DNA of 64,000 nt from Candidatus Moraniibacteriota bacterium (GTDB lineage: Bacteria; Patescibacteriota; Minisyncoccia; CAIUEV01; JAHKAQ01): contig WJJI01000014.1 in assembly GCA_014729795.1 (NCBI GenBank), positions 757 to 64,756 of the forward strand, given 5' to 3'. A model generated the notes under the pieces. That model was not told the origin of the DNA, did no database searches, and was given only the letters and a program-made list of their open reading frames with translations. The translations under genes and the position numbers were made by a program. Below, piece after piece: positions 28,573 to 64,000 of this stretch; within the stretch, counting starts at the first letter, position 1, and every line of letters starts with the position of its first letter.

Positions 28573-29259
28573 ATGTTATTCATAAAAAATAACCCGGTAA
28601 AAAAAATTTTTATATTTTTTTTGTTAATCATTACCTTTTTAGGTGTCTTTTACTATCTTTACACTTTTAAAAAAGACCAAAATCAAAAACAAACAAATAA
28701 AACCCAAGCAAAAATTATTATCAAAGGCTCAATTATTGATTTGCTAAATCAAAAACCATTAGAAAACGTTAGAGTTCAGAGCAAAAAAATTAATTTTTTA
28801 ACCTCTCAAACAGATAAAAATGGAGAATTCGAGATAAAAACCTACCCTAACGATATTTTATTGATTTCCGGATTAGATTTTTATGAACAAATCGAAATTC
28901 CAATTGAAAACAGAAAAAATATCCAAATAGCGCTAAACTCAAAAGCGCTGGCTTTTTTTAGAAAAATTGAAAAAGCCGAGGAGCAGCGGCAATATCGAAA
29001 AATATATCCTTTTATAGTAAATTCAATAGATGAAAATCATTATTTAGCCAAAAAGAATAACTGGCGTGATAACATAGTGCAAAAAGGTTTCTTAGGACCA
29101 AAAACAGTTAAAATAGATCGAGAAGTTCAAATAAAAGAAAATCAATACCAAACAAGCATTCGGTATGTTTTTCAGAAAGAGAATCAAGATTTAATCAAAA
29201 AATATTCTTTTGTTTTTAATAACGATCTAAAATATTTAGATCAAACTATTGATAACTAA
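28573..29259 (+). CDS. Membrane-anchored hypothetical protein with a CarboxypepD_reg-like beta-sandwich segment
   Basis: N-terminal TM helix. The segment IIKGSIIDLLNQKPLENVRVQS…TDKNGEFEI resembles carboxypeptidase-regulatory-like domains. The start lies 3 nt after the upstream stop. Confidence 0.4.
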   Translation: MLFIKNNPVKKIFIFFLLIITFLGVFYYLYTFKKDQNQKQTNKTQAKIIIKGSIIDLLNQKPLENVRVQSKKINFLTSQTDKNGEFEIKTYPNDILLISGLDFYEQIEIPIENRKNIQIALNSKALAFFRKIEKAEEQRQYRKIYPFIVNSIDENHYLAKKNNWRDNIVQKGFLGPKTVKIDREVQIKENQYQTSIRYVFQKENQDLIKKYSFVFNNDLKYLDQTIDN

Positions 29260-30040: not shown

Positions 30041-31597
30041 ATGCAAACGCTATCCAATACTACAATTTATTTGATTTTATCGGTAATACTAGGCTTTTCT
30101 TTGTTTTTGCCAAAAACCAGCCAAGCGGCTGAAATTGGCAACGCCAGCGATAAAATGACAAGTCAACATGGCAATCATGCCTCCGGAGCAATTAGTGTTG
30201 GAACTCAGTGGGACCTAACTGATGGTTTGGCCGCCCTTGCCAATACCGATTATTTAATTATTCATGATGGAGACAGCCCAGCCGGCACGACTGATTCGCT
30301 TTGTGTTTGGTTTGATGTCAGCGGTTCAGACGCGGCGCCGGCAGCCTGTGTTTCCGGTTCGGATCAGCAAGCAGAAGCAACCCTCAATGGCCTAGCCAAC
30401 AACGGAGAAGCTGCCGCTTCCATAGAAGCGGCCATCAATAGCGCTAATCCTGAATTTCATGTCACCGCTGAGATCCACACTCTTAACGATAACCGCGTGC
30501 AGTTAACCAATGATCAAGCGGGCGCGAATGGCAACGTTACCATTACCGAGGTTATTGATAGCCAAGATATTGTCATTCAAGGCTTGGATGGCGGAGGTTC
30601 CAGGGCCGATCATGATATCCGGTTTTCAACGCCCTCGGGAGTAGACTCTCCCGCGGATAATATTGTTATCGCTTTTCCAACAGGCTGGGACCTTTCAAGC
30701 TTAACCGCAGCTGATGTTGCTTTGGCTCAAGGCGATTTAGGTGATTGTAATAATCCTAGCATTGTTTTTAATGATAAAATTTTGCAATCCGGAGCTCCTG
30801 GGGCAGGAATTTGGGGGGTTTCGTTTTCAGGGCAACGAATCACCCTCTCCGCTCCCATAGACACGTCAACCGGAGAAATTATCACGGGTAGATGTGTTCA
30901 AATTAGAATTGGACTCAATGCCGGCGGAGCGGCCCAAATCGTTAACGCTAACGCTCAAGGCCCGGCTGGAGCCGACCAAGGTGATAGTGAATTAATTAAT
31001 ATAGGCGGCACCTTTGGCGATAAAGGCAATATCGCGGTCGCCCTTACCAACCGAGATATTATTTTTATTCAGGGTCGAGTAGAGCCAATTTTTAACTTTG
31101 ATGTTTTGCAAAATTTATGCGATTTAGGAGTTCTTGACGTGGCTTCTACTAAAACTTGTTCGGTAATATTTAATGTGGATACTAATGCGGGTAGCGGAGT
31201 CTCGGTTGAATATTCAGCGCCCAACTTATTAACCAATGGCGCCAGTCAGGAAATTGATCCAATCTCCAACGGCGACGGCAACGAAACTCCAGCCAACCCC
31301 GGAACCGAACAGTTTGGCATGAGAGCCTATGTATCCAACACTCCTGTCAATCCGATTTCGATTAACGATGGAGCGGCAACCGGAGACTATAACGGCGCCG
31401 GCTATGCCATGTATGTTAGCGGTGGAGCAGCTTACGTGCCGGACACAGCTCAAGATATGGCCGATATCTTAGCGACCAGCGTTGGTGGAATTGACAACAA
31501 TGAAGTCACTATTGAATTTATGGCTGACATTCAACCCTTAACTCCGGCTGGTGTTTACACAACAGATTACACTATAATTGCGACCGCGACTTATTAA
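30041..31597 (+). CDS. Secreted Gly/Ala/Asp/Thr-rich surface protein (hypothetical; possibly S-layer-like)
   Basis: Signal peptide (…KTSQAAEI). Low hydrophobicity and beta-rich composition. No catalytic motif. Confidence 0.45.
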   Translation: MQTLSNTTIYLILSVILGFSLFLPKTSQAAEIGNASDKMTSQHGNHASGAISVGTQWDLTDGLAALANTDYLIIHDGDSPAGTTDSLCVWFDVSGSDAAPAACVSGSDQQAEATLNGLANNGEAAASIEAAINSANPEFHVTAEIHTLNDNRVQLTNDQAGANGNVTITEVIDSQDIVIQGLDGGGSRADHDIRFSTPSGVDSPADNIVIAFPTGWDLSSLTAADVALAQGDLGDCNNPSIVFNDKILQSGAPGAGIWGVSFSGQRITLSAPIDTSTGEIITGRCVQIRIGLNAGGAAQIVNANAQGPAGADQGDSELINIGGTFGDKGNIAVALTNRDIIFIQGRVEPIFNFDVLQNLCDLGVLDVASTKTCSVIFNVDTNAGSGVSVEYSAPNLLTNGASQEIDPISNGDGNETPANPGTEQFGMRAYVSNTPVNPISINDGAATGDYNGAGYAMYVSGGAAYVPDTAQDMADILATSVGGIDNNEVTIEFMADIQPLTPAGVYTTDYTIIATATY

Positions 31598-44571: not shown

Positions 44572-46752
44572 TTATTTTTTAAAACTTATTGTTATTGTTG
44601 TCCCTTTATCAAGCTCAGTACTTTCAATATAAATCGAGGCGCCAAAATGGGCATCAATTATTTTTTTTGCTATAAACAACCCAAGTCCGGAACCGTCGGT
44701 GTAAGCATTGACCGCATTTTTGGCTCTTATAAATTTATCAAAAAGCCTGGGTATATCTTTTTTTGGAATACCAATACCTGTGTCTTGGATTTTTATTAAA
44801 ATTTTATTATCTTTTTCCTCTAGTTTTATTTTTATATACCCCTTTTTTGTGTATTGGATAGAGTTATTAACTAGATTTAATATAGCTTGTTCTAAGTATA
44901 TGGGGTTTGTCTGTATGTGAATGTTTCTTTTTGGGAGCTCTAATTTAAATTTAAGGCCTTTTAAGCTTATTTGATTTTTTTTATTTTCATATATATTTTT
45001 TAATAGTTTATTTAAGTTTACGTTGCTTTTTTTGAAGTTAAATTTTGAAGTATCCATCTCAGAGGCGTTTAAAATATCGTGAATTATTTTTGTAAGCTTT
45101 TGTGATTTAGCAAGAATTCCATTTATTAATTTTTTTTCTTGATTGCTTAGCGATCTTTTTCTAGATAAAATATCAGCCATACCTCTAATTACTGTTACCG
45201 GAGTTCTTAGTTGGTGAGAAGCTATGTTCAAAAACTCTCCTCTCATTTTAAGCAATTTCTTTAAATTAATATTTTTTTTCTTTAATTCTGTAGCTTGCTT
45301 TTTAACTCTCTTGTTCTGTTCCTGAAGTTCTTTAGTCTGGATATTGACTTTTTTCTTTAATTCTTGATTAAAATTATTAATTTTTTTATACAATAAGGCA
45401 TTATGGATTGCTGTAGAAATTTGGAGTCTAATAAATTCTAAAAAATCAATATCTTCTTTATTAAAACTACTTTTATCCCTTTTTCCGCCCAAGAACATTA
45501 ATCCAATTGTTCTCTTGTTAGCAAATAAGGGCACTAATAACTCTATAGCCTTGTTTTTATAAGGTTTAGGCAAAAATGAAACATCAATCTCTCTTTTTGA
45601 CAAAATTCTATTTTCATTATTTATTAATTTTTGTAGCTCTTTTTTAAACCCATTCTTTAATTTACCAACCATAAAACATTTTCTCGAATCACATATTTTT
45701 TTCTTTATGACTTTATTTTCATCAAATATTTCAATGTATATTTCCTCTAAATGTAATATTTTTTTAAAAGAATCCCTAATAACAAATAAAATTTCCTGTA
45801 GAGTCACGGCTTTATTTAATCTTAGTGCCACGTCTTTGTTAACTTTTTGTGGATTTAATCCTTTAAAAAAAATCCAATCTCCAAATTTTTGTATCCATTT
45901 TATTGCGGGCAAAATAATCGAACTGAATATTAATATTAATAAAAAACTTAATACATAAGATTCAATAGTGTATAAATCCCCGGTAAATTTTTTTGTTAAA
46001 TATATAAAACAGTAGAAAAATATAAAAATCATTATAGAAATAAGCATAATTCCATGAAACTTATGGAATATAAACCTTATACCGAAAAGTCTATATCTTA
46101 CTATAGAGTAATAAATAAACAATATTAATATTAACAATCCAATTCCATTTAATCTAAAAAATTCTTTAGAAACATGATTTTGAAGAAAAAAATTAAATAT
46201 TACAATAATTACTGCGCTTAAAAAGAATCCTAAAAAAATATATTTTATTTGGAGTTTTTTTATGCCTTTCTCTTTACGGTATTTATATAAAAGAGAGATA
46301 AAGCCGACTAACAAATAAATTATTATTAGGAAATAATAAAGCAAAGCATAGCTGCCTAGTTCAAATCTTAGCTTTTCGTTTAGAAAATAGATATTATTAA
46401 TAATTTTTCCATTTATAGAAAGCGAGCTCATAATCAAAGCGGGAATAATAAAAAAAATATAAGTAAGCAAGCTTTTTTTAATAGGCACAGGGAAATTTAG
46501 CAAGAATATAAAAGCGAAATAGCTAAGCAATGGAGCTAAGAAAAAATCTAATCTGAGAAAAATTTTTATTAAATTTATATCAGTGAATAAAGTCTGTAAG
46601 TAATTGAAGGAATACCAAGTTATTAAAACCAACGAAAAAATAAAAAACAAGATATTGGTCAAGTTTTTTTTATTTTTGTATGATTTGTAGCCCAAATAAA
46701 AAATCACAAAATTTATTATAACAAGAGGAATCAAATTCAATAATTTGTTCAT
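44572..46752 (-). CDS. Sensor histidine kinase with a large polytopic N-terminal membrane domain (no adjacent response regulator)
   Basis: About 10 N-terminal TM helices, a central GAF-like region, HisKA (NIASHQLRTPVTVIRGMADIL) and HATPase_c (IKIQDTGIGIPKKD…GSGLGLFIAKKII) domains. AT-rich segment. Confidence 0.75.
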   Translation of the reverse strand: MNKLLNLIPLVIINFVIFYLGYKSYKNKKNLTNILFFIFSLVLITWYSFNYLQTLFTDINLIKIFLRLDFFLAPLLSYFAFIFLLNFPVPIKKSLLTYIFFIIPALIMSSLSINGKIINNIYFLNEKLRFELGSYALLYYFLIIIYLLVGFISLLYKYRKEKGIKKLQIKYIFLGFFLSAVIIVIFNFFLQNHVSKEFFRLNGIGLLILILFIYYSIVRYRLFGIRFIFHKFHGIMLISIMIFIFFYCFIYLTKKFTGDLYTIESYVLSFLLILIFSSIILPAIKWIQKFGDWIFFKGLNPQKVNKDVALRLNKAVTLQEILFVIRDSFKKILHLEEIYIEIFDENKVIKKKICDSRKCFMVGKLKNGFKKELQKLINNENRILSKREIDVSFLPKPYKNKAIELLVPLFANKRTIGLMFLGGKRDKSSFNKEDIDFLEFIRLQISTAIHNALLYKKINNFNQELKKKVNIQTKELQEQNKRVKKQATELKKKNINLKKLLKMRGEFLNIASHQLRTPVTVIRGMADILSRKRSLSNQEKKLINGILAKSQKLTKIIHDILNASEMDTSKFNFKKSNVNLNKLLKNIYENKKNQISLKGLKFKLELPKRNIHIQTNPIYLEQAILNLVNNSIQYTKKGYIKIKLEEKDNKILIKIQDTGIGIPKKDIPRLFDKFIRAKNAVNAYTDGSGLGLFIAKKIIDAHFGASIYIESTELDKGTTITISFKK

Positions 46753-46796
46753 AAAAAAATGATTTAATATTTCGTTTCGGATCCGAAATTAGTTTT

Positions 46797-47771
46797 TTAT
46801 TTTATTGATGTTTTTTTATAATCATTATAACAGGCACATTTATATGTTTTTTTTAAAACCCCGGTTCTTCTATAGGTCTTTAAAATTTTATAAATATCTT
46901 CTGAACACTTCTCGCAATTTTTTGGAATGTCAATAGGTTTGGGATTGTCTGTAAATTCACCCAACAACAATGGCCAATTATGTTTCTGGGCCTCTTCAAT
47001 GATTTTTATTATTGTCCATAAAAAAGGCGGTTTATAGTTTCCCTCGATATATTCTGTGTACATTTTAGTGTTTTTTTGAACAAAAGCACAAGATAGGTTT
47101 ATTTCATCAACTTTTAATGAGTTTAAATACTCTATACTTTTTATAGTCTCAATATAGGCCTCTTTTTCATTTAAACCCACTGGTTTTAAAAAAACATATA
47201 CTGAAACTTTAACTCCTTGGCTCTTTAATAATTTTACAGAGCTTTCAAATTGTTTTTTAGATATTCCTTTTCTTAGTAACTTATTCCTAATATAATTATC
47301 TTGACTTTCAAATCCTAACGCTATTTTTAATTCTTTCTTTCCCAAGTTTTTTTTTGCTGTTCTGATTTTTTTTTCGTTAATATATTCACACCTTGTTTCA
47401 ATGGTTAGAGTATCTAAAAAATCATTTTTTCTAACCTCATTGTAGATATATGTCTGGAATCGTTTTGGTATTTCATTGTCATTTAAAAAACTGCCACCAT
47501 GATAAATTATTAATTCACTAGGCTTATATCTTTTTATTCTTTTTAAAGCATATTTATACAAAAATTTAAAAAACCAATCAGGGTACATTATACCGCCAAA
47601 GTTAAATTTTTTAATGTAATCATTAAAACCGCACATACTACATCCACCTGTTTTCTTCCAGTACTCGCAGCCTGCCGCGGGCAGTAATAAAGTCCAAGAG
47701 ACAACCGGTTTCTTTTTTATCACGGAATACTTTTGACCTATAAAGAAAAATAATTTATCTAAGCTGTCCAT
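46797..47771 (-). CDS. Radical-SAM-like protein with a non-canonical Cys cluster (C-x9-C-x2-C)
   Basis: LLLPAAGCEYWKKTGGCSMCGF near the N-terminus, which is a GGCxxC variant as in YhcC/TIGR01212-type radical SAM proteins. TIM-barrel-like remainder. AT-rich. Confidence 0.4.
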   Translation of the reverse strand: MDSLDKLFFFIGQKYSVIKKKPVVSWTLLLPAAGCEYWKKTGGCSMCGFNDYIKKFNFGGIMYPDWFFKFLYKYALKRIKRYKPSELIIYHGGSFLNDNEIPKRFQTYIYNEVRKNDFLDTLTIETRCEYINEKKIRTAKKNLGKKELKIALGFESQDNYIRNKLLRKGISKKQFESSVKLLKSQGVKVSVYVFLKPVGLNEKEAYIETIKSIEYLNSLKVDEINLSCAFVQKNTKMYTEYIEGNYKPPFLWTIIKIIEEAQKHNWPLLLGEFTDNPKPIDIPKNCEKCSEDIYKILKTYRRTGVLKKTYKCACYNDYKKTSIK

Positions 47772-47775
47772 AAAG

Positions 47776-48477
47776 TTAATGAAATTTCAGATAAATCTTC
47801 TCTAGATTTACAATAAAGTTAGCTATGAGGGTCCTAAATGGCCAATTATAAAAAATATTTTTTTTAAAAACCAATACTCCATAATTCCTGCTATCCAAAT
47901 CAGGAAAGTAATTAGCAAGAGCCTTAATCGGCTGAAGACCCTGAGATTGGTAAAGCCTTAACCCTCTATCATAAAACTTTCCATCCTTTCTTTTTAATTT
48001 TATGTATTGATCTACCCTGATTTTGGGGTTTTTTTTCTTATATTCATTATAATCCGGTATTCTAGAGCCGATATACGCTCCCTTTTTATTGTTTATAATC
48101 ATATTTTTTAATCCTTCTAGCATCAATAAAGATCCAATATTTAAAAATCTCTTTGATGGTAAAATAGATAGGTTTATACCGTAAATAAAATCTCCATTTT
48201 TTTTATGACTCTTTGTTGCCATGCCATTATCTGTTATGTTAGACCAGCTAAAACTATTGTTTTTTTTAATTTCATCTACATATTCGAATGAAACATAACC
48301 AACAACTTCTTTTTTATATGTAGCTATAATATTACCCTCAGGGAAAGCTTGAATTCTTGCCGCTATTTTTTTCCTATCTGCTCCTTCTTGTCCCCATGCT
48401 TTTTTTTCTAATATAACAATACCGCCAATATTTTTTAATCGGGCTTTAGATATTATAATTTTACCAAATAAGGCCAT
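47776..48477 (-). CDS. GNAT-like acyltransferase candidate
   Basis: Size and beta/alpha pattern (…VVGYVSFEY…GINLSILPSKRFLNIGSLLMLEGL) fit a GNAT fold with a Q/RxxGxG/A-like segment. The stop lies 5 bp upstream of the radical-SAM-like start. Confidence 0.35.
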   Translation of the reverse strand: MALFGKIIISKARLKNIGGIVILEKKAWGQEGADRKKIAARIQAFPEGNIIATYKKEVVGYVSFEYVDEIKKNNSFSWSNITDNGMATKSHKKNGDFIYGINLSILPSKRFLNIGSLLMLEGLKNMIINNKKGAYIGSRIPDYNEYKKKNPKIRVDQYIKLKRKDGKFYDRGLRLYQSQGLQPIKALANYFPDLDSRNYGVLVFKKNIFYNWPFRTLIANFIVNLEKIYLKFH

Positions 48478-50186: not shown

Positions 50187-51632
50187 ATGGAAAAAATGGT
50201 TTTAAAAAATAGCGTTAAGCTAGGCATTTTCTTGGTGACTTTAATGACCGTTTTATCTGTTGTTAATTATTATTTTCGAGATCAAGCATTAAGTTTTTTG
50301 GATTCATTTTTTAACAGTAATAAAAACGACAATCAACAGGTTATTAACGACCCCGAGCATATTCAACAACCGGATCAAGAATCAACCCAACAAGACTTAA
50401 ACATTATTTCTTTTGGTCAAGAACTTTTAGGCTCCAAAGCAGAAAAGCAATATTTAGTGCTGTTTCAAAATTCCATGGAGTTGCGTCCAGGAGGGGGTTT
50501 TATCGGATCATTTGCTGAAATAAAAGTAGCCGATCAACAAATTCAAGAGAAAACCGTGCACAACACGGCTGTTTTTGATCGAATGGTGCAAAAAAAGCCG
50601 GTTCCTCCTTATGTGGTTGAAACTTACTTAAAAGTGGATCGGCTTGGCATTAAAGATTGTAATTGGCACCTAGATTTTTCCAGTAATGCCCGGCAATTTA
50701 TTGAGCTTTATAAAACCACTGACCGGGCCAAGCCAATTGATGGGGTTATTGGTCTAACCACGGAAATTCTGCCATTCATACTGGAATTAACCGGACCCGT
50801 AACCATTGATCAAGTTTCTGGTGAATTTACCAAGGAAAATGCTTTGGAAAAACTTGAGTATGAGGTAGAGGTTGGCTATAAGGATCGTGGCGCTAGCAAA
50901 GATGAGCGTAAAAGCATTATGGAACCGTTACTAAGCGCCATAATTAACAAAGTCCAAGCCATGAACAAGCTGGATCAATTATTTATGATCAGTAAAATTC
51001 AGGAATTAATGGATAAAAAGGTTATCCAATTTTATTTTTTAGACAATCGAATGCAAAATTATGTTGAAAAACATAATTGGGCCGGTCAGTTAGTTAAAGC
51101 TGAAGACACGGATTACCTAGCCATAGTCGAGGCTAATTTAGGCGCGCTCAAAACTGATCGTTGCATGGAAAGAAGACTGAGCTACATCGTGGATTATACC
51201 CGGCCACAACCCATTGCTAACTTAAAAATAAATTACAACCATACTTGTCAAGAAAAAGACTTCATGACCGGTGATTATCAAAGCTTTTTAAGGATCTATA
51301 CCCAACAGGACTCGCGTTTAATTACCACTCAAGGCTTTGCTCAAGGCTTAATTAAACCGGCCACCGACCCGCAAGATCGCGCCGTGATAGATTCGGAAGC
51401 GGATAAGAAAACTTTTGGTAACATGACCTATATTGAGTTAGGTTCTGGCAAAGAGTATGAATTTACCTACCTAATTAATTCAGGTCTTGTTGAAAATTAT
51501 CAGCTTTATTTTCAAAAACAACCAGGCTTGAAACCGCCCTGGCTGGAAGTTGTTTTAAAAACCTCGACCGGCCAAACAACTTTATACAACAATCAGGTCA
51601 CTCAAGACGTTGTGATTCAGAATACACCTTAA
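50187..51632 (+). CDS. DUF4012-like extracytoplasmic protein (polysaccharide-locus associated)
   Basis: N-terminal TM helix. The LVLFQNSMELRPGGGFIGSFAEIKV block resembles the DUF4012 core (LxxxQNxxExRPxGGFxGS). Confidence 0.35.
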   Translation: MEKMVLKNSVKLGIFLVTLMTVLSVVNYYFRDQALSFLDSFFNSNKNDNQQVINDPEHIQQPDQESTQQDLNIISFGQELLGSKAEKQYLVLFQNSMELRPGGGFIGSFAEIKVADQQIQEKTVHNTAVFDRMVQKKPVPPYVVETYLKVDRLGIKDCNWHLDFSSNARQFIELYKTTDRAKPIDGVIGLTTEILPFILELTGPVTIDQVSGEFTKENALEKLEYEVEVGYKDRGASKDERKSIMEPLLSAIINKVQAMNKLDQLFMISKIQELMDKKVIQFYFLDNRMQNYVEKHNWAGQLVKAEDTDYLAIVEANLGALKTDRCMERRLSYIVDYTRPQPIANLKINYNHTCQEKDFMTGDYQSFLRIYTQQDSRLITTQGFAQGLIKPATDPQDRAVIDSEADKKTFGNMTYIELGSGKEYEFTYLINSGLVENYQLYFQKQPGLKPPWLEVVLKTSTGQTTLYNNQVTQDVVIQNTP

Positions 51633-51642
51633 TATTCAAAAC

Positions 51643-53628
51643 ATGTTAAAAAAAATACAAAAAACCAAACTCAGCAAAATCTTTTTAGCTACCTTGGTTT
51701 CGATACTGTTAATTGGCATTGCTTTAAGAATTTACCGGCATAGCGATTTTCTTCACTTTGAGCTAGATCAAGCCCGCGACGCTATAGTTATCAGTTCGGC
51801 TTACGAACAAGGTCCGGGACAACTGCCGCTCTTAGGGCCAAGGGCAGCCGGCACCATGCTTAGATTGGGGCCATTTTTTTATTACACCGGTTATCTAAGC
51901 GCTTTACTCTTTGGTAATCATCCAGCTGGGATGAACGGCATCAACCTAATCCTCAGCGTGGCTGCCATTTTACTTGTTTATTGTTTATTGCGTTATTATT
52001 TCTCTAGATTTATTAGCTTGGCAACCACAAGTATTTTTTCAGCCTCAATTTTTATCGTAGTTTACGCTCGCTTTGCCTGGAACCCCAACATGCTCATCTT
52101 TTTTATTCCGCTTCTGCTTTTAAATATCTTAGCTATTTTAAAACAAACCTATAAAAACAAAAAAACTCAACCTTGGCTTTTTTATAGCTTGTCATTCTTA
52201 ACCGCGGTTTGCATGCAGCTTCATTTTCTGGCCTTTTTAGCTGTGCCATTTTTTCTTTTAATGTTTGCAATAATATATTTTTATCTATTGCCGGTGCTTT
52301 TCAAATTAAAAAATTTTCAAATTAAGTCAATCTCGATCGCTTTCAAACAGGTTTTTAAGCAAAACATCAAGGGGCTTGGTCGGTTAATTAAAAAAGCCTG
52401 GCGACAAATCGCTTTGGCTCTTTTGATTTTTATGCTTATGTTTGCCCCGTTGTTTCTAAATGAATACTTAACCGGAGCTGATAACACCAAAGAGTTTTTT
52501 AAGGCCATCAGTGAAAAATCAGAAAAAAGCCAAGACCATGATTTGCTTGAAAAACTAGTTAGAAATTATCAGGAATACTCCAGAGGTTATTTTTTAATTA
52601 TTACCGGCTTACAAAAAACCGATAATATCAGCTTTGATTTTTGGGAGAAGAAAACCGGCATCATAGATTTTTCTTGCGATAGAAAGTGTCGTCAAAGGCT
52701 AAATGGCAGCATTGGCGCTTTCTTATTTATGACTCTGGGGTTCTCTTTGTTTTTATATAATATTTTTAAGTCTTTTCAAAAAGTCAAAAAAATCGTTAAC
52801 CGGAAATCAAACCGCAAATATAAATATGAACAAAGAAAAGCAATTTTACAATTCCATTTTTTAATTTTGATTTTTTTACTGTTTCTAGCCGCTTTTCTTG
52901 GGTTTTTACCGGTTGCTTACAAATTTCCACCAAGGTTTTTGTTATTCACCCAAATTGTTGCTTTTGTACTTTTAGGACTCATACTCAAGTTTATAAGTCG
53001 AACGATCCTCAGCCAAGCTCGCAAATTTAAAAAATATTCAACTAATCAATTCAAGTTAATTAGTAAAATTTGTATCATAATGTTAACCGCATTTTTATTC
53101 GGTTTAAATATTTTTTACAATCTGGAACGTTTTCAAGAACAGGCAAGCGCTCACACTACTAACCCAATTGAATTCGAAAGAGACACCATCCTTAAAGAAG
53201 ATATTCGTTTCACCAGAATCCAACAAACAAAGATAATTGATTGGATTAGAAACAACAGCGATCATCATATTGTTTATGTTTGGGGACCTCCAAAATATTA
53301 CCGGGCTTTTGTTTATGAGTTAATCTATCGGGAAAATTTTGATGGAAGAAGGTTGCGTTATAGCGCCGAATGCGGGAATGCCGATTATTTTGCCGTGGTA
53401 GGCGCCGATTCAGATGATGATTTTTTTCCTAAAGCACGGAAAATTTTTTCTTCTGTCGCTAATGAAAGCTTTGGCACTCTTAAAGTTCATAAACTTAATA
53501 TTAATAACCCTGATTTAATTGAGAAAAAAAATTGCGGTCCGGAAAAAGAAAAAAAGCCCAACAGTTATGCCAGAAGATATACCTGGGCTGAGGCATGGAA
53601 AAAACTATGGCGAGATTCAACCGATTAA
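51643..53628 (+). CDS. GT-C fold membrane glycosyltransferase (ArnT/PMT-like) with a C-terminal soluble domain
   Basis: About 12 TM helices. ELDQARDAIVISSAY…GPFFYY in the first loop. A C-terminal ~170-aa soluble domain. Confidence 0.5.
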   Translation: MLKKIQKTKLSKIFLATLVSILLIGIALRIYRHSDFLHFELDQARDAIVISSAYEQGPGQLPLLGPRAAGTMLRLGPFFYYTGYLSALLFGNHPAGMNGINLILSVAAILLVYCLLRYYFSRFISLATTSIFSASIFIVVYARFAWNPNMLIFFIPLLLLNILAILKQTYKNKKTQPWLFYSLSFLTAVCMQLHFLAFLAVPFFLLMFAIIYFYLLPVLFKLKNFQIKSISIAFKQVFKQNIKGLGRLIKKAWRQIALALLIFMLMFAPLFLNEYLTGADNTKEFFKAISEKSEKSQDHDLLEKLVRNYQEYSRGYFLIITGLQKTDNISFDFWEKKTGIIDFSCDRKCRQRLNGSIGAFLFMTLGFSLFLYNIFKSFQKVKKIVNRKSNRKYKYEQRKAILQFHFLILIFLLFLAAFLGFLPVAYKFPPRFLLFTQIVAFVLLGLILKFISRTILSQARKFKKYSTNQFKLISKICIIMLTAFLFGLNIFYNLERFQEQASAHTTNPIEFERDTILKEDIRFTRIQQTKIIDWIRNNSDHHIVYVWGPPKYYRAFVYELIYRENFDGRRLRYSAECGNADYFAVVGADSDDDFFPKARKIFSSVANESFGTLKVHKLNINNPDLIEKKNCGPEKEKKPNSYARRYTWAEAWKKLWRDSTD

Positions 53629-53636
53629 GACTAATA

Positions 53637-54194
53637 TTAAAATGAGCGGAATTTTTTTCTAATCATTGGATAATCAGGAATGGTTTTAGCAACCAATTGC
53701 CAAAATTTCAGCGAATGATTCATTTGTTTCAAATGACACAATTCATGAACAATTAAATAATCGGCGCATTTATTGGGCAAAAAAACAATTCGATAATTAA
53801 AATTCAAGTTACGTTTGCCTGAGCAGCTTCCCCAACGAGTGCGTTGATTTCGAATTGAAATGCGATTAAACCTAAATTTATAAAACCGATTATAATATTG
53901 CAGCCGGTCTAAAACAAAATTATAAGCCCTGTGTTTATATTTTAAATAATCTTTTCTGTTTCCCTGTCGCAACAGCCCGACTTTTTGTTGTTTTGCTTGT
54001 TGAATTTTATCAATAATCCAACCTTTTTTACTGACCATGAAAGTTTCAAGCGCGCCAACGCTCATAAAAAAAGGCAAAGTGGCCGACAGCTCCCCTTTAT
54101 GATTTACGGTCAAGCGGATGTTTTTAGCTTTAAAACTTTTTTTTAAATAATATCCAAAATTTTGTTTATTTAACTGAATGAAGCGCTGATTCAT
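53637..54194 (-). CDS. YgjP/DUF45-like (M48/WLM-type) zinc metallohydrolase
   Basis: HELCHLKQMNHSLKFWQLV, that is HExxH plus a downstream His. Size and layout are typical of DUF45. Confidence 0.7.
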   Translation of the reverse strand: MNQRFIQLNKQNFGYYLKKSFKAKNIRLTVNHKGELSATLPFFMSVGALETFMVSKKGWIIDKIQQAKQQKVGLLRQGNRKDYLKYKHRAYNFVLDRLQYYNRFYKFRFNRISIRNQRTRWGSCSGKRNLNFNYRIVFLPNKCADYLIVHELCHLKQMNHSLKFWQLVAKTIPDYPMIRKKFRSF

Positions 54195-54221
54195 ATAGGT
54201 TTAGCTTATTTGAGTTTTGAA

Positions 54222-55670
54222 TTATTTTGCAACCCATTTCTTGGTCCAATTCAGGAAAAATGTTTTTATCCTATAATTTTTATGGCTCATTTCTGAACCA
54301 TAAGTAAAACTTGCATAAATAAAAAAACTAGCAATTAGAGGAACTAACACCGCTAAATAAACTGTGTAGAATAATTTTTTTGACTTTAATTTATTTAGCC
54401 AGTGAGCACAAACCAGCATAAAGAGGATAATCGAAATTGTCAAAGCATTCATATATGAATATAAAAACAAAGGTCTTTTTATTAAAATAAAAGGTAAAAA
54501 ACTACAAACATATCCTAATAAAAAAGAGCCTTTTAAGCTAAATGATTGCTTAATTTTTGGAAAAAAGACAATCGCGCCTAAGATGCCCAAAATACCAGCC
54601 AACCAAACAATCGGATTGCCCTGAAAGGTTATATTGCGTCGACCCTGGTCATTGTGTTCAGAAAAGTACAAAACCGGTTTTTGCATTATCGGCCAAGTAT
54701 AAGATCGGCTGGAATAAGGATGATCAGCTCTGATACGTGAATTAGAAATAAACATTTGTTTATTCAAATAATAAACGTATTTTAATTTTACCCATTGATC
54801 CGGTAAAAATTGGTTTTTAAATTCCGGTTCTTTTCCGGGCGTATTAACAGTATCGTAATGATCATCTGGCATCAGACTAAAATGCAGAAAAAAGATAGAA
54901 ATATAAAATAATAAAAAACTAAAAATTAGCAATAAATACCTACCTACCAACATCGGCGCTGTCTTTAATGCTATACTCGACATTTTTTTAAGTTTGAACC
55001 TTACTTTGAGAACTTTGGTTCCATAATCAAAAAATAAAATCAAAAAAACAATGGCTAAGTAACATAAACCGGTCCACTTTGTTGAAACGCTGGCGCTTAA
55101 AAATATGCCGGCTAAAAATAATTTTTTCCAACTGTAATTGTTATTCCTTGCATTTAGAAAGACAAGTAAACCCAAAAGACCAAAAAGCACCAAAAAACTA
55201 TCAAGTAGGATGAAACGAGCTTGAACAACAAAAGAGTTCTCCAAAAGCAACAAACAACCACCCAGAAACGCAAGGCTGGGCCGCAGTTTAATTTGCCGCA
55301 GTAAATAATAAAAAATCAACGGTATTAAACTGCCCGCCAAAGCCGGTCCATAGCGAAAAATTAAGTATGGAGTCGCGCCGTAATCATCCGCATGCGCGAA
55401 TTTAAAATCGCCAAAATGCTTTACAAAATCGCCATATCCGCCTAGATAAGTGAATAAATAAATTATTAACTTGCCCAGTGGCGGATGAATGTCAAAATAA
55501 GATTTTTGAATAAAATACGAATTCACAAAACCACCGAAGTGGGTTTCGTCAAAAACCACAATCGCTGGATAATCTAAAAAAGCCAGCCTGGAAACCAAAC
55601 CAAAAACTATCAGCAAGCCCGGAAATATTAAGTTTTTGTCATTAATTTTTTTAAAAAAAATTTTTTTCAC
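54222..55670 (-). CDS. GT39/PMT_2-family membrane glycosyltransferase
   Basis: FDETHFGGF (the DE motif of protein O-mannosyl/ArnT-like transferases) in loop 1, HPPLGK, and 10 or more TM helices. Confidence 0.65.
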   Translation of the reverse strand: MKKIFFKKINDKNLIFPGLLIVFGLVSRLAFLDYPAIVVFDETHFGGFVNSYFIQKSYFDIHPPLGKLIIYLFTYLGGYGDFVKHFGDFKFAHADDYGATPYLIFRYGPALAGSLIPLIFYYLLRQIKLRPSLAFLGGCLLLLENSFVVQARFILLDSFLVLFGLLGLLVFLNARNNNYSWKKLFLAGIFLSASVSTKWTGLCYLAIVFLILFFDYGTKVLKVRFKLKKMSSIALKTAPMLVGRYLLLIFSFLLFYISIFFLHFSLMPDDHYDTVNTPGKEPEFKNQFLPDQWVKLKYVYYLNKQMFISNSRIRADHPYSSRSYTWPIMQKPVLYFSEHNDQGRRNITFQGNPIVWLAGILGILGAIVFFPKIKQSFSLKGSFLLGYVCSFLPFILIKRPLFLYSYMNALTISIILFMLVCAHWLNKLKSKKLFYTVYLAVLVPLIASFFIYASFTYGSEMSHKNYRIKTFFLNWTKKWVAK

Positions 55671-58409: not shown

Positions 58410-59015
58410 CTATTTTAGACCGGCAATCTCACGATCAGTTTGCCGTAAACGTAATTCATAAAGCATTTTTTCCAAGTTTTTCAGATTGTGCTTGGCTTGA
58501 TCAAATTTATGACGGTCAGAGCCGCGCAAATTTAATTCCAATAAAGCGTTAATAATTTGTTCGCTGATTTCGTGAAAATCCTGCAATTGATCAAGCTTTT
58601 TCAAGCTCGCCAAACGAACCGCTCTTCGATTAAGCTCGCCGGTTAAATCAGCCAAACCGCCGATCAATATTTCCGGATTACCCCGCAAAAAATCTAAAAG
58701 TTTTCTCGGGATTTCAAGCTCGCCGTTCTCAATGTAATTACAATAAAGCTCGGCTTCTACATACTCTTCCAAGGCTTCGTTGCAAAAACCTTCATATCTT
58801 AATCTTGGATTTTCTTGCGTGATGTTAATAATTTTGTTCAATAATTCTTGATTTTCCCGCAACCTTTTTCGAGCCTGTCTCGGTTTTTGATTATGCGTAA
58901 GGCTAATAGCTTTTTTTGAGTTTTTTAAAATAAGACGCGAGGCGTCAAAAACCTGATTATTTTTTCCCTCATAAGTTTGATGGTCTTTTATTAAATTAGC
59001 CAAAAGATTGATCAT
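58410..59015 (-). CDS. Hypothetical all-alpha protein with a Translin-like C-terminus
   Basis: The C-terminal …GELNRRAVRLA…HKFDQAKHNLKNLEKMLYELRLRQ parallels the Translin family C-terminal pattern (RxKYDxLKYxxKKxExVxYDLxIRG). Confidence 0.3.
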   Translation of the reverse strand: MINLLANLIKDHQTYEGKNNQVFDASRLILKNSKKAISLTHNQKPRQARKRLRENQELLNKIINITQENPRLRYEGFCNEALEEYVEAELYCNYIENGELEIPRKLLDFLRGNPEILIGGLADLTGELNRRAVRLASLKKLDQLQDFHEISEQIINALLELNLRGSDRHKFDQAKHNLKNLEKMLYELRLRQTDREIAGLK

Positions 59016-59983: not shown

Positions 59984-61054
59984 TCAGTATTTTCTATTCA
60001 ATACATAATCAGCCAAAGCTAATAAAAATTCTTGGGTTTTGGTTGGCAGTTTTAGAGCCTTAAGTTCTAGCTTAGCCTGCTTTATTAATGCTTGGCTTTT
60101 TGCTTCACAATCATGAAGCGCCTTGGTCGAATGCGCCAACTGCTTATAGAAATCCAACTCCTTTTGATCGGGGGTCTGTTTTCGCTGTATCATTTGCTCT
60201 AGTTTTCTTTTTTCCGCCGGCTTAGACGCGATTAACATTTTCCTGGTCAGTAAAGTTTGTTTACCTTCTTGAATATCTGATCCGATATCTTTACCCAATT
60301 CTTTTTTAGAGCTAAAAATTCCAATCAAGTCATCTTTGATCTGATAAGCCACGCCTAAATTCATAGCATAATTAGCAAGCCCTCTTTCTAGTTGTTTCTT
60401 GCTTTGTCCCAACGCCAAGCCAATCAAAAGTGGATTTTCAAACGTGTATTTAGCTGTTTTTAGCATGTAGATATTAAGGATTTGCGTTTGAGTCAGGTTT
60501 TGATCATTGACGTTTAGATCCAAAGACTCGCCAGCCAGGGTATGAAATAAAGAATCATTCATTTGTTCCAAAATCCGTTGCTTCTTGTTTGCCTCTATAT
60601 GAGCTTGGTTTACAAGTTTAATGCTTAAATTAAAAGCCAAATCCGACGAGATAAAAGCCTGAGCTTGGCCAATTCTTTCAGCGTTCAGAGCGTTTAACCT
60701 CAATCGGCTTTGGTTTTGAGCGAAAAGCCGATATAAAGTTGGCCGCCCCCTTCTTGTTTGGTCTCGATCAAACACATCATCTTGGATTATCAAAAATGCG
60801 TGAATCAATTCTATGGCCGCGGCTAAGTCATAAACTATTTCTCTTTTTACCCGGCTTTGCGCTGCTTGGGCTCCTTGCATCACTAAAGCAGCTCTAAGTC
60901 TTTTGCCGCCGTTTAAAACAAAATGGCTAAAAGCCTGGTATTGTTTTTGAAAAGCCGGATTAATTTGAGCCGCTTTCTCGCTTTCTTGGTCAAGAATATT
61001 TCCAAGGTGGTCTTCGATTTGTTTTTTTACTTGATCAAGTTTTTTTCTGAGCAT
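59984..61054 (-). CDS. Polyprenyl diphosphate synthase (trans-IPPS; FPP/GGPP/longer)
   Basis: First DDxxD motif (LIIQDDVFD). The expected second Asp-rich motif is not a clean DDxxD: the region reads YQIKDDLIG. Overlaps folD by 20 bp. Confidence 0.85.
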   Translation of the reverse strand: MLRKKLDQVKKQIEDHLGNILDQESEKAAQINPAFQKQYQAFSHFVLNGGKRLRAALVMQGAQAAQSRVKREIVYDLAAAIELIHAFLIIQDDVFDRDQTRRGRPTLYRLFAQNQSRLRLNALNAERIGQAQAFISSDLAFNLSIKLVNQAHIEANKKQRILEQMNDSLFHTLAGESLDLNVNDQNLTQTQILNIYMLKTAKYTFENPLLIGLALGQSKKQLERGLANYAMNLGVAYQIKDDLIGIFSSKKELGKDIGSDIQEGKQTLLTRKMLIASKPAEKRKLEQMIQRKQTPDQKELDFYKQLAHSTKALHDCEAKSQALIKQAKLELKALKLPTKTQEFLLALADYVLNRKY

Positions 61055-61910
61055 GAGCTAGCTGATAGCAAATTAATAAATTTTCCAATAACATAGCAAT
61101 GGTCATTGGCCCGACCCCACCCGGCACCGGCGTAATAGCTCCGGCTTTTTGGGCCGCTGAGTCAAAATCAAAATCTCCCTGAAGCTTTTTACCCATTCTA
61201 GAGATTCCCACATCAATTAAAATTGAATCGGCTTTAATCATATCCGCTTTTATAAAACCAGGTTTACCAATAGCGGAAACCAGTAACTCGGCTTTTTGAG
61301 TATGATTTTTTAAATTTCGAGTTTGGCTATGACAAATAGTAACCGTACAATCTTGGTTCAACAATAATTGAGCCATGGGTTTGCCCACAATGTTGCTTCT
61401 GCCGATCACTACTGCCTGTAAGCCCTTTAAATCCAGTTTTAAACTTTGAATTAATCGCAAACAGCCCTTAGGAGTGCAAGGAGTCAAATCTTGGTCGCTG
61501 CCGGAGCTAAAGAATCGTCCCAAGTTTCTAGAAGTCAAACAGTCAACATCCTTAATCGGATCGATTAAATCGAGAACCGGTCCTGGTTCAATCGGTTCAG
61601 GCAAAGGCAGTTGCACTAAAATCCCGGTTGTTTTTGGATCATTGTTTAATTTTCTTATAGTCTGCTTAATTAAACAATTTCCTGATTTGTAAGCTTGAAT
61701 CGCCTGCTTTGCGTTAATCTTAATAACCTGAGAGATTACGCCGGCTTCATCGCAAGCTTTTTGTTTCATGCCAACGTAAACCCGGGACGCTTGATCTTCC
61801 CCAACCAAAATCACACTCAACTTAGCTTCAGCCTTTAAAGCAAGTAAGCGTTTTTTTACATCAGCTCTGATTCTTTTAGCTTGATTAGCTCCGTCAATAA
61901 TTTTTGTCAT
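61035..61910 (-). CDS. folD: Bifunctional methylenetetrahydrofolate dehydrogenase/cyclohydrolase
   Basis: VILVGEDQASRVYVGMKQKACDEAG and a C-terminal Rossmann block (GxSNIVGKPMAQLL). Confidence 0.9.
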   Translation of the reverse strand: MTKIIDGANQAKRIRADVKKRLLALKAEAKLSVILVGEDQASRVYVGMKQKACDEAGVISQVIKINAKQAIQAYKSGNCLIKQTIRKLNNDPKTTGILVQLPLPEPIEPGPVLDLIDPIKDVDCLTSRNLGRFFSSGSDQDLTPCTPKGCLRLIQSLKLDLKGLQAVVIGRSNIVGKPMAQLLLNQDCTVTICHSQTRNLKNHTQKAELLVSAIGKPGFIKADMIKADSILIDVGISRMGKKLQGDFDFDSAAQKAGAITPVPGGVGPMTIAMLLENLLICYQLAHAQKKT

Positions 61911-62546
61911 CTGGCTTGTTTATTTTATTTAAAAAAATTCTTAACCCTTATTTTGCTCTTTTTATATCATCTTAGCCTTTAAATGACAATTTGTCCTTAT
62001 TCTGCAACGCTGAGGTTTTTTGTGAAAAACAGAGAAATTATCTACTTGTTTTTTTTGGAATTTGACCACCTGTTTTACCACTGCAGCGATTAGAACAATT
62101 TTTAGGCTTGGAAGTAAAATGAAATTAAGAAACAGTCGAGCTAAATTAAGTAGCTATGAAAAAGGAATATTAGACAAATGTATTTTCCTCAAAACGCAAC
62201 CTTAAATCTGCAACGGCATTGGTTGACTTTAATTTACAAGCCTTATACTATTTTATCATACAGATACTGCAATCTTAAATTTTATTGTGACAGACCCAGA
62301 ATTATTTCATTTAGGTGATAAAGTTTTTCGTCGTAAAGAAAAAAGCACTTAGAGAACTTATAAGGTTATGTGAAAAAGCCCTTTAAGGAAAACCTGTCTA
62401 TATTTCTTTAATTTGGTCGGTGTGATTGTTAAGACAAGATTTGATACTTTAGGCATCTAGCCAGAACCTTGAGGGATATTGTGCTAGAAAAATTCAGAGA
62501 TTAATAATTTTAAAAAAAAGAATCGAAAACTTCAAATAAATATCTC

Positions 62547-64000
62547 ATGATTAAAATTAAACAGAATAATTCAAAAGTAGAAAATTATTATCAAAAAAAA
62601 AGCGGCTATAAACTGCAATATCCGCCAACCGAAAAAGCCAAACTTTTAATGCTTGATAATTTCCCGATCATGGGAAAGCTGACCGCTTTGCGTTTCATTG
62701 AATGGGTTTTGGAAAATAATGACGGAGTGGTGGCCTTGCCTACCGGAAAAACTCCGGAGCATTTTATCAAATGGAGCAAATATATTCTTCAAAACTGGAA
62801 TAAGAAAGAAATCAAGCAAATGCTTTCTGAGCATGGCCTCAAAAGCGGTAAAAAGCCCAAAATAAATCGTTTGAAATTCGTTCAAATCGACGACTTTTAT
62901 CCGATTTATCCGAAATGGAAAAACAGTTTTTATTATTATGTAAACAAATATTACTTGAAAGACTTCGGATTTTCAAAAGAAAAAGCCTTGTTAATAGACC
63001 CTTCAAGAACCGGTTTAAAAAAAGGAGAAGTTTTGGAGGATGTTTTTCCAAATTTTTTAGTGGATTTAAGCTTACGCTACCGAAAGGCTAAAACCAAGCT
63101 TGAAACAAGACAAAAGAGCGTAATTCAAGCTGTAGATGAATTTTGCCGGCAATATGAAGAGAAAATCAGAGATTTAGGCGGAATTGGTTTTTTTCTAGGC
63201 GGAATCGGTCCGGACGGCCACATCGCTTTTAATGTGTCCGGCAGCGACTTTCATTCCGACACCAGACTGACTAACATAAACTATGAAACAGCGGCGGCGG
63301 CCGCAACAGACTTGGGCGGTATTGAAGTAAGCAGAAAAAGACTGGTAATCACTATCGGACTTGAAACAATTGCTTATAATCCCGATGTCTGCGCCATTGT
63401 CATCGCCGCCGGAGAAGCCAAAAGCGAAATCGTGGCAAAAGCCGTTCAGGAAAAGGCGAGCATTAACTGTCCGGCTTCGATTCTGCAAAGAATAAAAAAC
63501 GGCGTTTTTTATTTAACCAAAGGAGCGGCCAAGCAATTGGAACAAAGAAATTTAATAGCTTTATCCCAGCGGAAAAAACTTGACGAAAAAGAAGAAAATA
63601 AAATAATTATCGATCATTCTTTAAAAAACAAGATTCAGATAAAAAACATCAAGGAAAATAAGGCAAAAAAAGATAAATTTTTAGCAATTCTGCTTCAAAA
63701 ATCAAATAAAAAATTAAACGATTTAAAAAAACAGACTAAAAAAAGCCTCACAAATTCCATTGAAAAATCGCAAAAATCGATCAAGAATGAGATCATTTTG
63801 CACACCAACCCTCATCATGACGATGAAATGCTGGGTTATTATCCTTTAATTCGCGACCTGATTAAGGAAGAATCCAATAAAAACTATTTTAATTATTTGA
63901 CTTCCGGCTTTACTTCGGTTTCAAACATTTATGTTTTAAAACAAGTAAAAACCGTTTTGGATCATATTGAAGCTTTGGATTTGGAAAAAAAATTTAAAAA
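62547..64000 (+). CDS. NagB-family (glucosamine-6-phosphate deaminase/6-phosphogluconolactonase-like) domain fused to a C-terminal LmbE/PIG-L-like deacetylase domain. 3'-truncated by the window edge and absent from the ORF track.
   Basis: My own in-frame translation from ATG 62547 to base 64000 contains no stop codon. It includes LPTGKTPEHF and GIGPDGHIAFNVSGSD (NagB signatures). After a K-rich linker comes ILHTNPHHDDEMLGYYPLI, the PIG-L/LmbE (A)HPDDE motif. The minus-strand ORFs at 62646-63488 in the track are antisense artefacts of this gene. Confidence 0.7.
   Translation, partial: MIKIKQNNSKVENYYQKKSGYKLQYPPTEKAKLLMLDNFPIMGKLTALRFIEWVLENNDGVVALPTGKTPEHFIKWSKYILQNWNKKEIKQMLSEHGLKSGKKPKINRLKFVQIDDFYPIYPKWKNSFYYYVNKYYLKDFGFSKEKALLIDPSRTGLKKGEVLEDVFPNFLVDLSLRYRKAKTKLETRQKSVIQAVDEFCRQYEEKIRDLGGIGFFLGGIGPDGHIAFNVSGSDFHSDTRLTNINYETAAAAATDLGGIEVSRKRLVITIGLETIAYNPDVCAIVIAAGEAKSEIVAKAVQEKASINCPASILQRIKNGVFYLTKGAAKQLEQRNLIALSQRKKLDEKEENKIIIDHSLKNKIQIKNIKENKAKKDKFLAILLQKSNKKLNDLKKQTKKSLTNSIEKSQKSIKNEIILHTNPHHDDEMLGYYPLIRDLIKEESNKNYFNYLTSGFTSVSNIYVLKQVKTVLDHIEALDLEKKFK

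Follow-up and report, generated by a model that had tools for sequence, protein, structure and literature searches.

Several enzymes of amino-sugar catabolism bear on the gene described here. The glucosamine-6-phosphate (GlcN-6-P) deaminases of the NagB-I type include those of E. coli (NagB; 1dea and 1cd5), humans (GNPDA1; 1ne7) and B. subtilis (2bkv), while NagB-II, found for example in Shewanella, is a GlcN-6-P deaminase with the SIS fold that is not homologous to NagB-I (PMC10201695). NagA, an amidohydrolase with a TIM-barrel fold, is unrelated to the LmbE/PIG-L de-N-acetylases, of which the Pyrococcus diacetylchitobiose deacetylase (3we7/4xm0), MshB (1q7t), BC1534 (2ixd), TT1542 (1uan) and LnmX (5bmo) were compared here. 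The closest architecture is that of PRK02122 (NF002557; about 653 residues), in which a NagB-like domain is followed by an LmbE-like one, and which we take to cover the Bacteroides proteins of the BT_0258 type. BT_0258 itself is annotated as a GlcN-6-P deaminase isozyme and is induced by N-acetylglucosamine (GlcNAc) and by mucin (PMC13634575). The same domain order occurs in the product of a gene, termed here the fusion gene, that starts at position 62547 of a 64,000-nucleotide stretch (the window) of contig WJJI01000014.1 from a Candidatus Moraniibacteriota bacterium. This gene is a real, already annotated member of an uncurated subfamily of an architecture that has already been catalogued. 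We lean slightly towards the idea that it encodes a bifunctional enzyme, in which the LmbE-type domain deacetylates GlcNAc-6-phosphate (GlcNAc-6-P), as an analogue of NagA, and the NagB-type domain deaminates GlcN-6-P to fructose-6-phosphate (Fru-6-P).

An earlier reading of the window, made from its letters alone (the sequence-only reading), had proposed an uninterrupted plus-strand frame of more than 480 codons, and re-translation bears this out: from the ATG at 62547, which is the earliest ATG downstream of the nearby upstream in-frame stops, 484 codons without a stop run to the end of the window (62547..64000). At the base composition of the window, where stops make up about 7% of random codons, the chance of such a run is, by our own arithmetic, about 1e-15. 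These codons match at 100% the first 62% of a 784-residue protein (P0001), itself an exact match in NCBI nr, and the gene, including its stop codon, would end at the window-equivalent position 64901, outside the window. It had been described as unlisted, and it is indeed missing from the list of open reading frames (ORFs), because that list leaves out any ORF still open where the source sequence stops, but GenBank already annotates it, on a contig of 65,846 nucleotides, as 'MAG: glucosamine-6-phosphate deaminase [Candidatus Moranbacteria bacterium]'. In a sequence search, the frame matches thousands of homologues along its entire length, and the four minus-strand ORFs that overlap it, which encode 57–97 residues and all start with TTG, we take to be shadow ORFs.

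The structure of P0001 was predicted with a whole-model template-modelling score (pTM) of 0.85, and comparison with Foldseek confirmed a NagB/Pgl alpha-beta fold in the N-terminal domain and an LmbE Rossmann-like fold in the C-terminal domain. Residues 1–30 (62547..62636, plus strand, as for all the features of this gene) form an extension that is absent from canonical NagB, as seen in the alignment with four canonical NagBs; it has no apparent signal peptide, and a helix is modelled at residues 10–19. The NagB-type domain (NagB-I/Pgl superfamily) occupies residues ~31–340 (62637..63566) and contains two family-specific insertions, at residues ~83–100 and ~154–195. The following segment, residues 341–415 (63567..63791), was previously described as a Lys-rich linker; it is Lys-rich, but it is modelled as a confident module of four helices (347–361, 370–375, 377–386 and 390–407), with a per-residue model confidence (pLDDT) of about 90–97 for residues 340–410, and is predicted to be a rigid, structured connector and not a flexible linker. 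The LmbE/PIG-L-type deacetylase domain starts at residue 416, with residues 416–484 (63792..64000) inside the window, and extends beyond it to about residue 784; it contains a helical insertion of about 100–130 residues at ~460–590.

With respect to the fusion of a NagB-like and an LmbE-like domain, both folds are strongly supported, but the scores for both Pfam profiles lie under their gathering thresholds. On P0001, Glucosamine_iso (PF01182) scores 23.2 bits against 27, and PIG-L (PF02585) scores 22.3 bits with the full-length protein, and 13.5 bits with the window part, against 28.2. The PIG-L alignment spans residues 421–649 and reaches position 126 of the 129 positions of the profile at residue 649; an alignment of that length with a 129-position profile points to an insertion of ~100 residues. 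The NCBIfam nagB model TIGR00502 scores 88.8 bits against a cutoff of 236.9, and the two-domain model NF002557/PRK02122 (653 positions) scores 202.5 bits (E 9e-60) against a cutoff of 384, aligning with both halves in two stretches, the better of which pairs residues 194–518 with profile positions 141–480; the fusion protein is about 130 residues longer than this model as a result of insertions in both domains. Solved NagB structures can be detected by sequence, with E values as low as 1.4e-17 for the window fragment and 3.6e-23 for a family profile. No solved LmbE structure was found by sequence, using either the single protein or the family profile; fold comparison alone works, and the LmbE/PIG-L structures listed above share just 9–16% identity with the C-terminal domain. 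By fold, therefore, the fusion protein belongs to the NagB-I and LmbE superfamilies, whereas by curated thresholds it formally belongs to no family.

The sequence-only reading had pointed to NagB-II/LmbE fusions described in Bacteroidetes. The label NagB-II is a misnomer here, since it denotes the SIS-fold enzyme (PMC10201695), with which the NagB-I-fold domain of the fusion protein has in common only the reaction catalysed; no SIS domain was matched in P0001 in either Pfam or NCBIfam. As for the fusions, no published description of a NagB-LmbE fusion was found in the literature searched. Nor was there any profile or fold match in P0001 to a NagA-type amidohydrolase, and the fusion protein, whose fold is unrelated to that of NagA, would be at most a functional analogue of the latter and not a homologue.

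The motifs on which the sequence-only reading relied (TGKTP, GIGPDGHIAFN and PHHDDE) were located where it had claimed. To compare active sites, 40 members of the family were aligned with four canonical NagBs encoded in the relatives' loci. The TGxTP phosphate loop is kept in the family as TGKTP (residues 66–70; 62742..62756), with an invariant Lys68 where canonical NagB has Ser43. Asp115 (62889..62891), which corresponds to the catalytic Asp72 of NagB, is invariant in all 40 sequences, as are Asp223 and His225 (NagB Asp141 and His143), both within GIGPDGHIAFN (residues 219–229; 63201..63233), and Lys292 (63420..63422; NagB Lys208). The allosteric residues Lys160, Thr161 and Tyr254 of NagB are not kept. 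In the C-terminal domain, PHHDDE (residues 422–427; 63810..63827) lies in invariant columns as the counterpart of AHPDDE, P422-H423-H424-D425-D426 being the same in 40/40 sequences; a second invariant motif, G637-P638-D639-T640-H641 (GPDTH), lies beyond the window and differs from the HxDH-type second motif of other LmbE/PIG-L proteins. If His13, Asp15, Asp16 and His147 of MshB are taken as the template, as we assume they can be, His423 and Asp426 would be metal ligands, Asp425 the general base, and His641 of GPDTH a putative third metal ligand.

The functional assignment draws on the genes that surround the relatives. A species-level genome scan matched at least 599 stretches, at least 592 of which encode a relative, such that the family of ~784 residues is present in at least 592 species genomes. 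From the best 80 of the matched stretches, with flanks of up to 8 kb, 806 ORFs were clustered and the recurrent ones annotated; the counts that follow rest on the 76 loci in which ORF calling recovered the fusion gene. A gene for chitin, GlcNAc or murein recycling lies within 8 kb in 28 of the 76 loci (37%), and an amino-sugar or murein-recycling gene lies within two genes of the fusion gene in 24 loci. Among the Ignavibacteria/Melioribacter, a divergent MurQ gene is in the flanks of 10 loci, directly adjoining the fusion gene in eight of them, and this neighbouring MurQ passes the equivalog cutoff of TIGR00274 (385 bits vs 302). A co-directional gene encoding an enolase-superfamily, dipeptide-epimerase-like protein is found 3' of the fusion gene in 12 loci of this group, where Amidase_3, GHL10 and Peptidase_S13 genes are also frequent nearby. 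Individual gene orders are as follows: GH3, SSF transporter, ROK, fusion, canonical NagB and DUF4954 in locus L013; fusion, two ROK genes, GH18 chitinase, SSF and GH20 hexosaminidase in L041; ROK, fusion, GH35, GH18 and MFS in L027; MFS, fusion and two ROK genes in L042; and ROK, binding protein, GH94 and fusion in L083. The fusion gene would have the same place in the pathway as nagA, beside ROK kinases, NagB, MurQ and chitin hydrolases, and its proposed reaction is that of NagA (EC 3.5.1.25). No amidohydrolase was present among the 25 most frequent families in either set of neighbouring genes; the deacetylation of GlcNAc-6-P is the one step that these clusters lack, and an LmbE-type enzyme could supply exactly that.

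The position of the deacetylase step relative to phosphorylation could be different. In the archaeal Dac pathway, deacetylation acts on the unphosphorylated sugar, and the LmbE-type domain might likewise act on GlcNAc or N,N'-diacetylchitobiose, with phosphorylation afterwards and the NagB-like domain acting later on GlcN-6-P. A diacetylchitobiose deacetylase, that of Pyrococcus, is among the LmbE-fold structures compared, and locus L083 includes a GH94 gene; the GH94 protein adjoining the relative P0005 has no NCBIfam equivalog match, so chitobiose and cellobiose phosphorylase are not told apart. The step that the clusters lack is, as stated above, the one on the phosphorylated sugar, and we regard this alternative as improbable.

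From the intact ORF, the two folds, the conservation of motifs, the gene contexts of the relatives and the fact that NagA was undetected there, we infer the substrate, the two activities and whatever coupling links them, as follows. The fusion protein would work in the cytoplasm as an enzyme with two domains that breaks down amino sugars. Its C-terminal LmbE/PIG-L-fold domain would be a metal-dependent de-N-acetylase that converts GlcNAc-6-P to GlcN-6-P and acetate, standing in for the unrelated amidohydrolase NagA, an assignment made because of the fold, the motifs and the logic of the missing NagA. Its N-terminal NagB-I-fold domain, assigned because of its fold and the partial conservation of its motifs, would have a pocket rewired at three positions (Val for Glu148, Thr for Arg172 and Lys for Ser43) and would isomerise and deaminate GlcN-6-P to Fru-6-P and ammonium, probably without allosteric control, while the rigid helical connector would keep the two domains joined. 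The sequence-only reading had proposed this conversion of GlcNAc-6-P to Fru-6-P by one polypeptide, and of the possible functions it is the one best supported by the relatives' gene context, but its deaminase half is open to more doubt than its deacetylase half, given that the NagB-like domain lacks Glu148 and Arg172, that the profile scores are under their cutoffs and that a canonical NagB is encoded near five of the relatives.

A number of observations weigh against the bifunctional enzyme. At the position of NagB Glu148, the residue after GIGPDGHIAFN is Val230 (the motif and this Val together span 63201..63236), and it is Val or Ile in all 40 sequences. Arg172, a phosphate-binding residue of NagB, aligns with Thr254 (63306..63308), and the position holds Thr or Ser in 35 of the 40 sequences, with no Arg among those listed; Thr254 is inside the active-site loop 222–263, where the confidence of the structural model is low. 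To our knowledge, Glu148 is conserved even among non-allosteric NagBs, which would make its loss weightier. In E. coli NagB, this residue forms a salt bridge with Lys160 when the enzyme is in the T state, and in the R state it makes contact with His143, which is catalytic (PMC4008608). Judged from the alignment, the loss of Glu148 and Arg172 fits a non-allosteric, rewired site, and it is also the chief ground for doubting a standard deaminase activity. Candidates to take over from Glu148 and Arg172 are Lys68, Glu247, Arg265 and Arg177, all of them invariant. In five loci (L003, L008, L013, L058 and L065), moreover, a canonical NagB of 268–272 residues with both Glu148 and Arg172 is encoded one to four genes from the fusion gene, which suggests that the NagB-like domain of the fusion does more than duplicate NagB. 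Some 63% of the loci, and the window itself, offer no informative context. Neither the loci nor the window contained an ORF with a NagA motif, as judged by a single sequence-motif search with flanks of up to 8 kb and not by a whole-genome profile search. No curated profile in Pfam or NCBIfam reaches its cutoff on P0001, and no biochemical study of any NagB-LmbE fusion, of this family or of PRK02122, was found in the literature searched.

Another possibility is that the LmbE-type domain alone is the pathway enzyme, as a GlcNAc-6-P deacetylase, while the NagB-like domain binds a sugar phosphate, has a regulatory role or is an isomerase/deaminase of another amino-sugar phosphate (such as galactosamine-6-phosphate or mannosamine-6-phosphate), with a separate NagB carrying out the deamination. 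The nearby canonical NagBs and the altered pocket are what such a division of labour would look like, and the invariance of Asp115, Asp223, His225 and Lys292 is what a bifunctional enzyme would look like; the division of labour seems to us rather unlikely, though by no means negligible. In some divergent two-domain relatives, the motifs of one domain (DGH, or HHDD and the conserved His) have been lost while the full-length architecture is retained: P0254, P0246 and P0237 are without the NagB DGH, and P0211 has QQDD for HHDD. Either domain appears to be dispensable in some lineages, where it persists as a structural or pseudo-enzyme partner. Both sets of motifs are kept in the clade of the Moranbacteria protein.

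If the LmbE-type domain of the bifunctional enzyme does deacetylate GlcNAc-6-P, metabolic reconstructions based on NagA only would wrongly report that the recycling of chitin, GlcNAc and murein is incomplete in hundreds of genomes from the Ignavibacteriota, Calditrichota, Bacteroidota, Planctomycetota and Spirochaetota, as well as in this genome of the candidate phyla radiation (CPR). The fusion would also be a natural case of a NagB active site functioning in the absence of both Glu148 and Arg172, and its two joined amino-sugar enzymes would be candidates for the channelling of substrate from one to the other. A wider proposal, to which we would give somewhat less than an even chance, is that the LmbE-fold domain has widely taken the place of NagA, to which it is not orthologous, in physical coupling with a NagB-type deaminase whose site is rewired and not allosteric; that hundreds of species of the Fibrobacterota–Chlorobiota–Bacteroidota (FCB) group, planctomycetes and spirochaetes use it for the turnover of chitin and murein; and that a lineage of Moranbacteria captured one copy laterally, so that a reduced genome could turn scavenged GlcNAc-6-P, by means of one gene, into GlcN-6-P (for the cell wall) or Fru-6-P. 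For the present genome, the gene points to the gain of amino-sugar processing capacity, from outside the CPR, by a lineage of Moranbacteria. Such a fusion is not surprising in kind, and its additional interest, which is modest, lies in the rewired NagB site, the likely replacement of NagA and the isolated presence in a CPR genome.

The family comprises 240 representatives at 50% clustering (E <= 1e-30). The best 80 loci, at 45–51% identity, are from the Ignavibacteriota/Melioribacteraceae, Calditrichota, Bacteroidota, KSB1, WOR-3, Planctomycetota, Spirochaetota, Sumerlaeota, Gemmatimonadota, Latescibacterota and Omnitrophota. None of these 80 is from the CPR, all the named relatives in the protein search are likewise non-CPR, and the nearest protein other than P0001 itself has 56% identity to it. 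Shorter relatives of ~645–663 residues (P0201, P0202, P0246, P0254 and P0265) all score under the PRK02122 cutoff of 384 bits, as does P0058 (219.9 bits), and eight relatives other than P0001 and P0058 score 100–183 bits; because even the shorter relatives fail this cutoff, the architecture consists of several sister subfamilies, of which PRK02122 is the sole curated one.

In the comparison of loci, two further associations were seen. In Calditrichota, KSB1 and Ignavibacteriaceae, the canonical NagB is consistently paired with a 660-residue DUF4954/DUF6819 left-handed-beta-helix protein (L003, 3677–8680; L008, 11604–16112; L013, 10529–13387; L058, 10372–13334; L065, 10906–16057), and an ADP-forming acetyl-CoA synthetase-like protein is also encoded in three of these five loci; the pairing could tie DUF4954 and acetate handling to amino-sugar catabolism. 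In the WOR-3-like clade, one candidate sister of the Moranbacteria protein, the gene immediately after the fusion gene always encodes a protein of the SMP-30/gluconolactonase family (SGL), in L009, L016, L022, L028 and L055, with no NCBIfam model matched at E 1e-10.

How did such a gene come to be in this genome? The threonyl-tRNA synthetase encoded on the same contig has named best matches in the CPR only (Moranbacteria at 72%, then Parcubacteria, Patescibacteria and Dojkabacteria), and by this measure the contig is CPR, whereas the relatives of the fusion gene are not. One explanation would be that the gene is foreign to the genome, the end of the contig being an assembly chimera, or that it is a functionless, decaying relic in a CPR host; this would agree with there being no gene beyond it on the contig and a spacer of 636 nucleotides before it, with its named relatives being all non-CPR and with the lack of any pathway context in the window. 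Its composition, however, is that of a resident. The GC content is 0.356, compared with a contig mean of 0.372, and codon usage is mid-rank, both typical of the contig; its tetranucleotide profile correlates with that of the remaining window at r = 0.946, above the window mean of 0.917 and above all of 74 homologous genes (maximum 0.900); and Lys makes up 13.8% of P0001, compared with a maximum of 9.8% among the homologues and an average of 9.2% for the ORFs of the window. The frame is, moreover, intact across 784 codons, with every residue that is invariant in the 40-sequence alignment kept. An assembly chimera was rejected on composition, and a foreign or relic gene seems to us very improbable. 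Because GC content, codon usage, tetranucleotides and Lys content look resident, the fusion gene seems to have entered from outside the CPR by a lateral transfer long ago and to have ameliorated since to the host's composition, rather than to be a chimeric contig end. A neighbour-joining analysis with 100 bootstraps placed it with the WOR-3-like clade in 37% and with Sumerlaeia in 32%; the placement is unsettled and no donor can be named.

The neighbours of the fusion gene, all on the opposite strand, are folD, a polyprenyl synthase gene, ispH, a Translin-family gene, ispD, dxs and genes for PMT-type glycosyltransferases. Targeted searches found no homologues of MurQ, ROK, epimerase, canonical NagB or DUF4954 in the 64 kb. 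The fusion had earlier been said to fit a host-dependent lifestyle, for which nothing in the window speaks: the neighbours belong to the methylerythritol phosphate (MEP) pathway and to folate metabolism, and those searches turned up no amino-sugar gene. Between folD (61035–61910, minus strand) and the divergent fusion gene lies a non-coding spacer (61911..62546; no ORF of 60 residues or more), which is long, given how densely genes are packed elsewhere on the contig, and which presumably houses both promoters; it contains eight promoter-like matches, where 3.2 are expected. No terminator-like site was found in it, and its last 217 nucleotides fold no better than shuffled sequences (z = +1.6). 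A riboswitch or leader in the spacer was rejected, given that its Rfam matches are all sub-threshold and due to chance and that it has no terminator or stable fold.

Other features of the window may be mentioned. The Translin-family protein (201 residues; 58410–59015, minus strand; PF01997, E 1.6e-17) is encoded between ispH and ispD, within a run of MEP-pathway genes that includes dxs, ispD, ispH and the polyprenyl synthase gene. Translins occur chiefly in eukaryotes and archaea, and for a CPR genome to have most of the MEP genes seems notable. A cluster at 50187–55670, which encodes a DUF4012 protein, a PMT_2 glycosyltransferase (661 residues), a YgjP-like metallopeptidase and a PMT + PMT_4TMC O-mannosyltransferase-like enzyme (482 residues), suggests protein or cell-envelope glycosylation. 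ORFs at 17615–18925, 28573–29259 and 44572–48477 have a very low GC content (0.22–0.30, compared with 0.37 for the contig); the first of these is also among the strongest outliers in codon usage, and the 726-residue product of 44572–46752 is named 'hypothetical' in GenBank. These ORFs may be islands of foreign or fast-evolving surface genes. Finally, two hypothetical proteins on the plus strand, of 518 residues (30041–31597) and 762 residues (26282–28570), contain only 1.0% and 2.8% Lys, respectively, which is atypical compared with the 9.2% average of the contig's ORFs, and are encoded by genes with a relatively high GC content.

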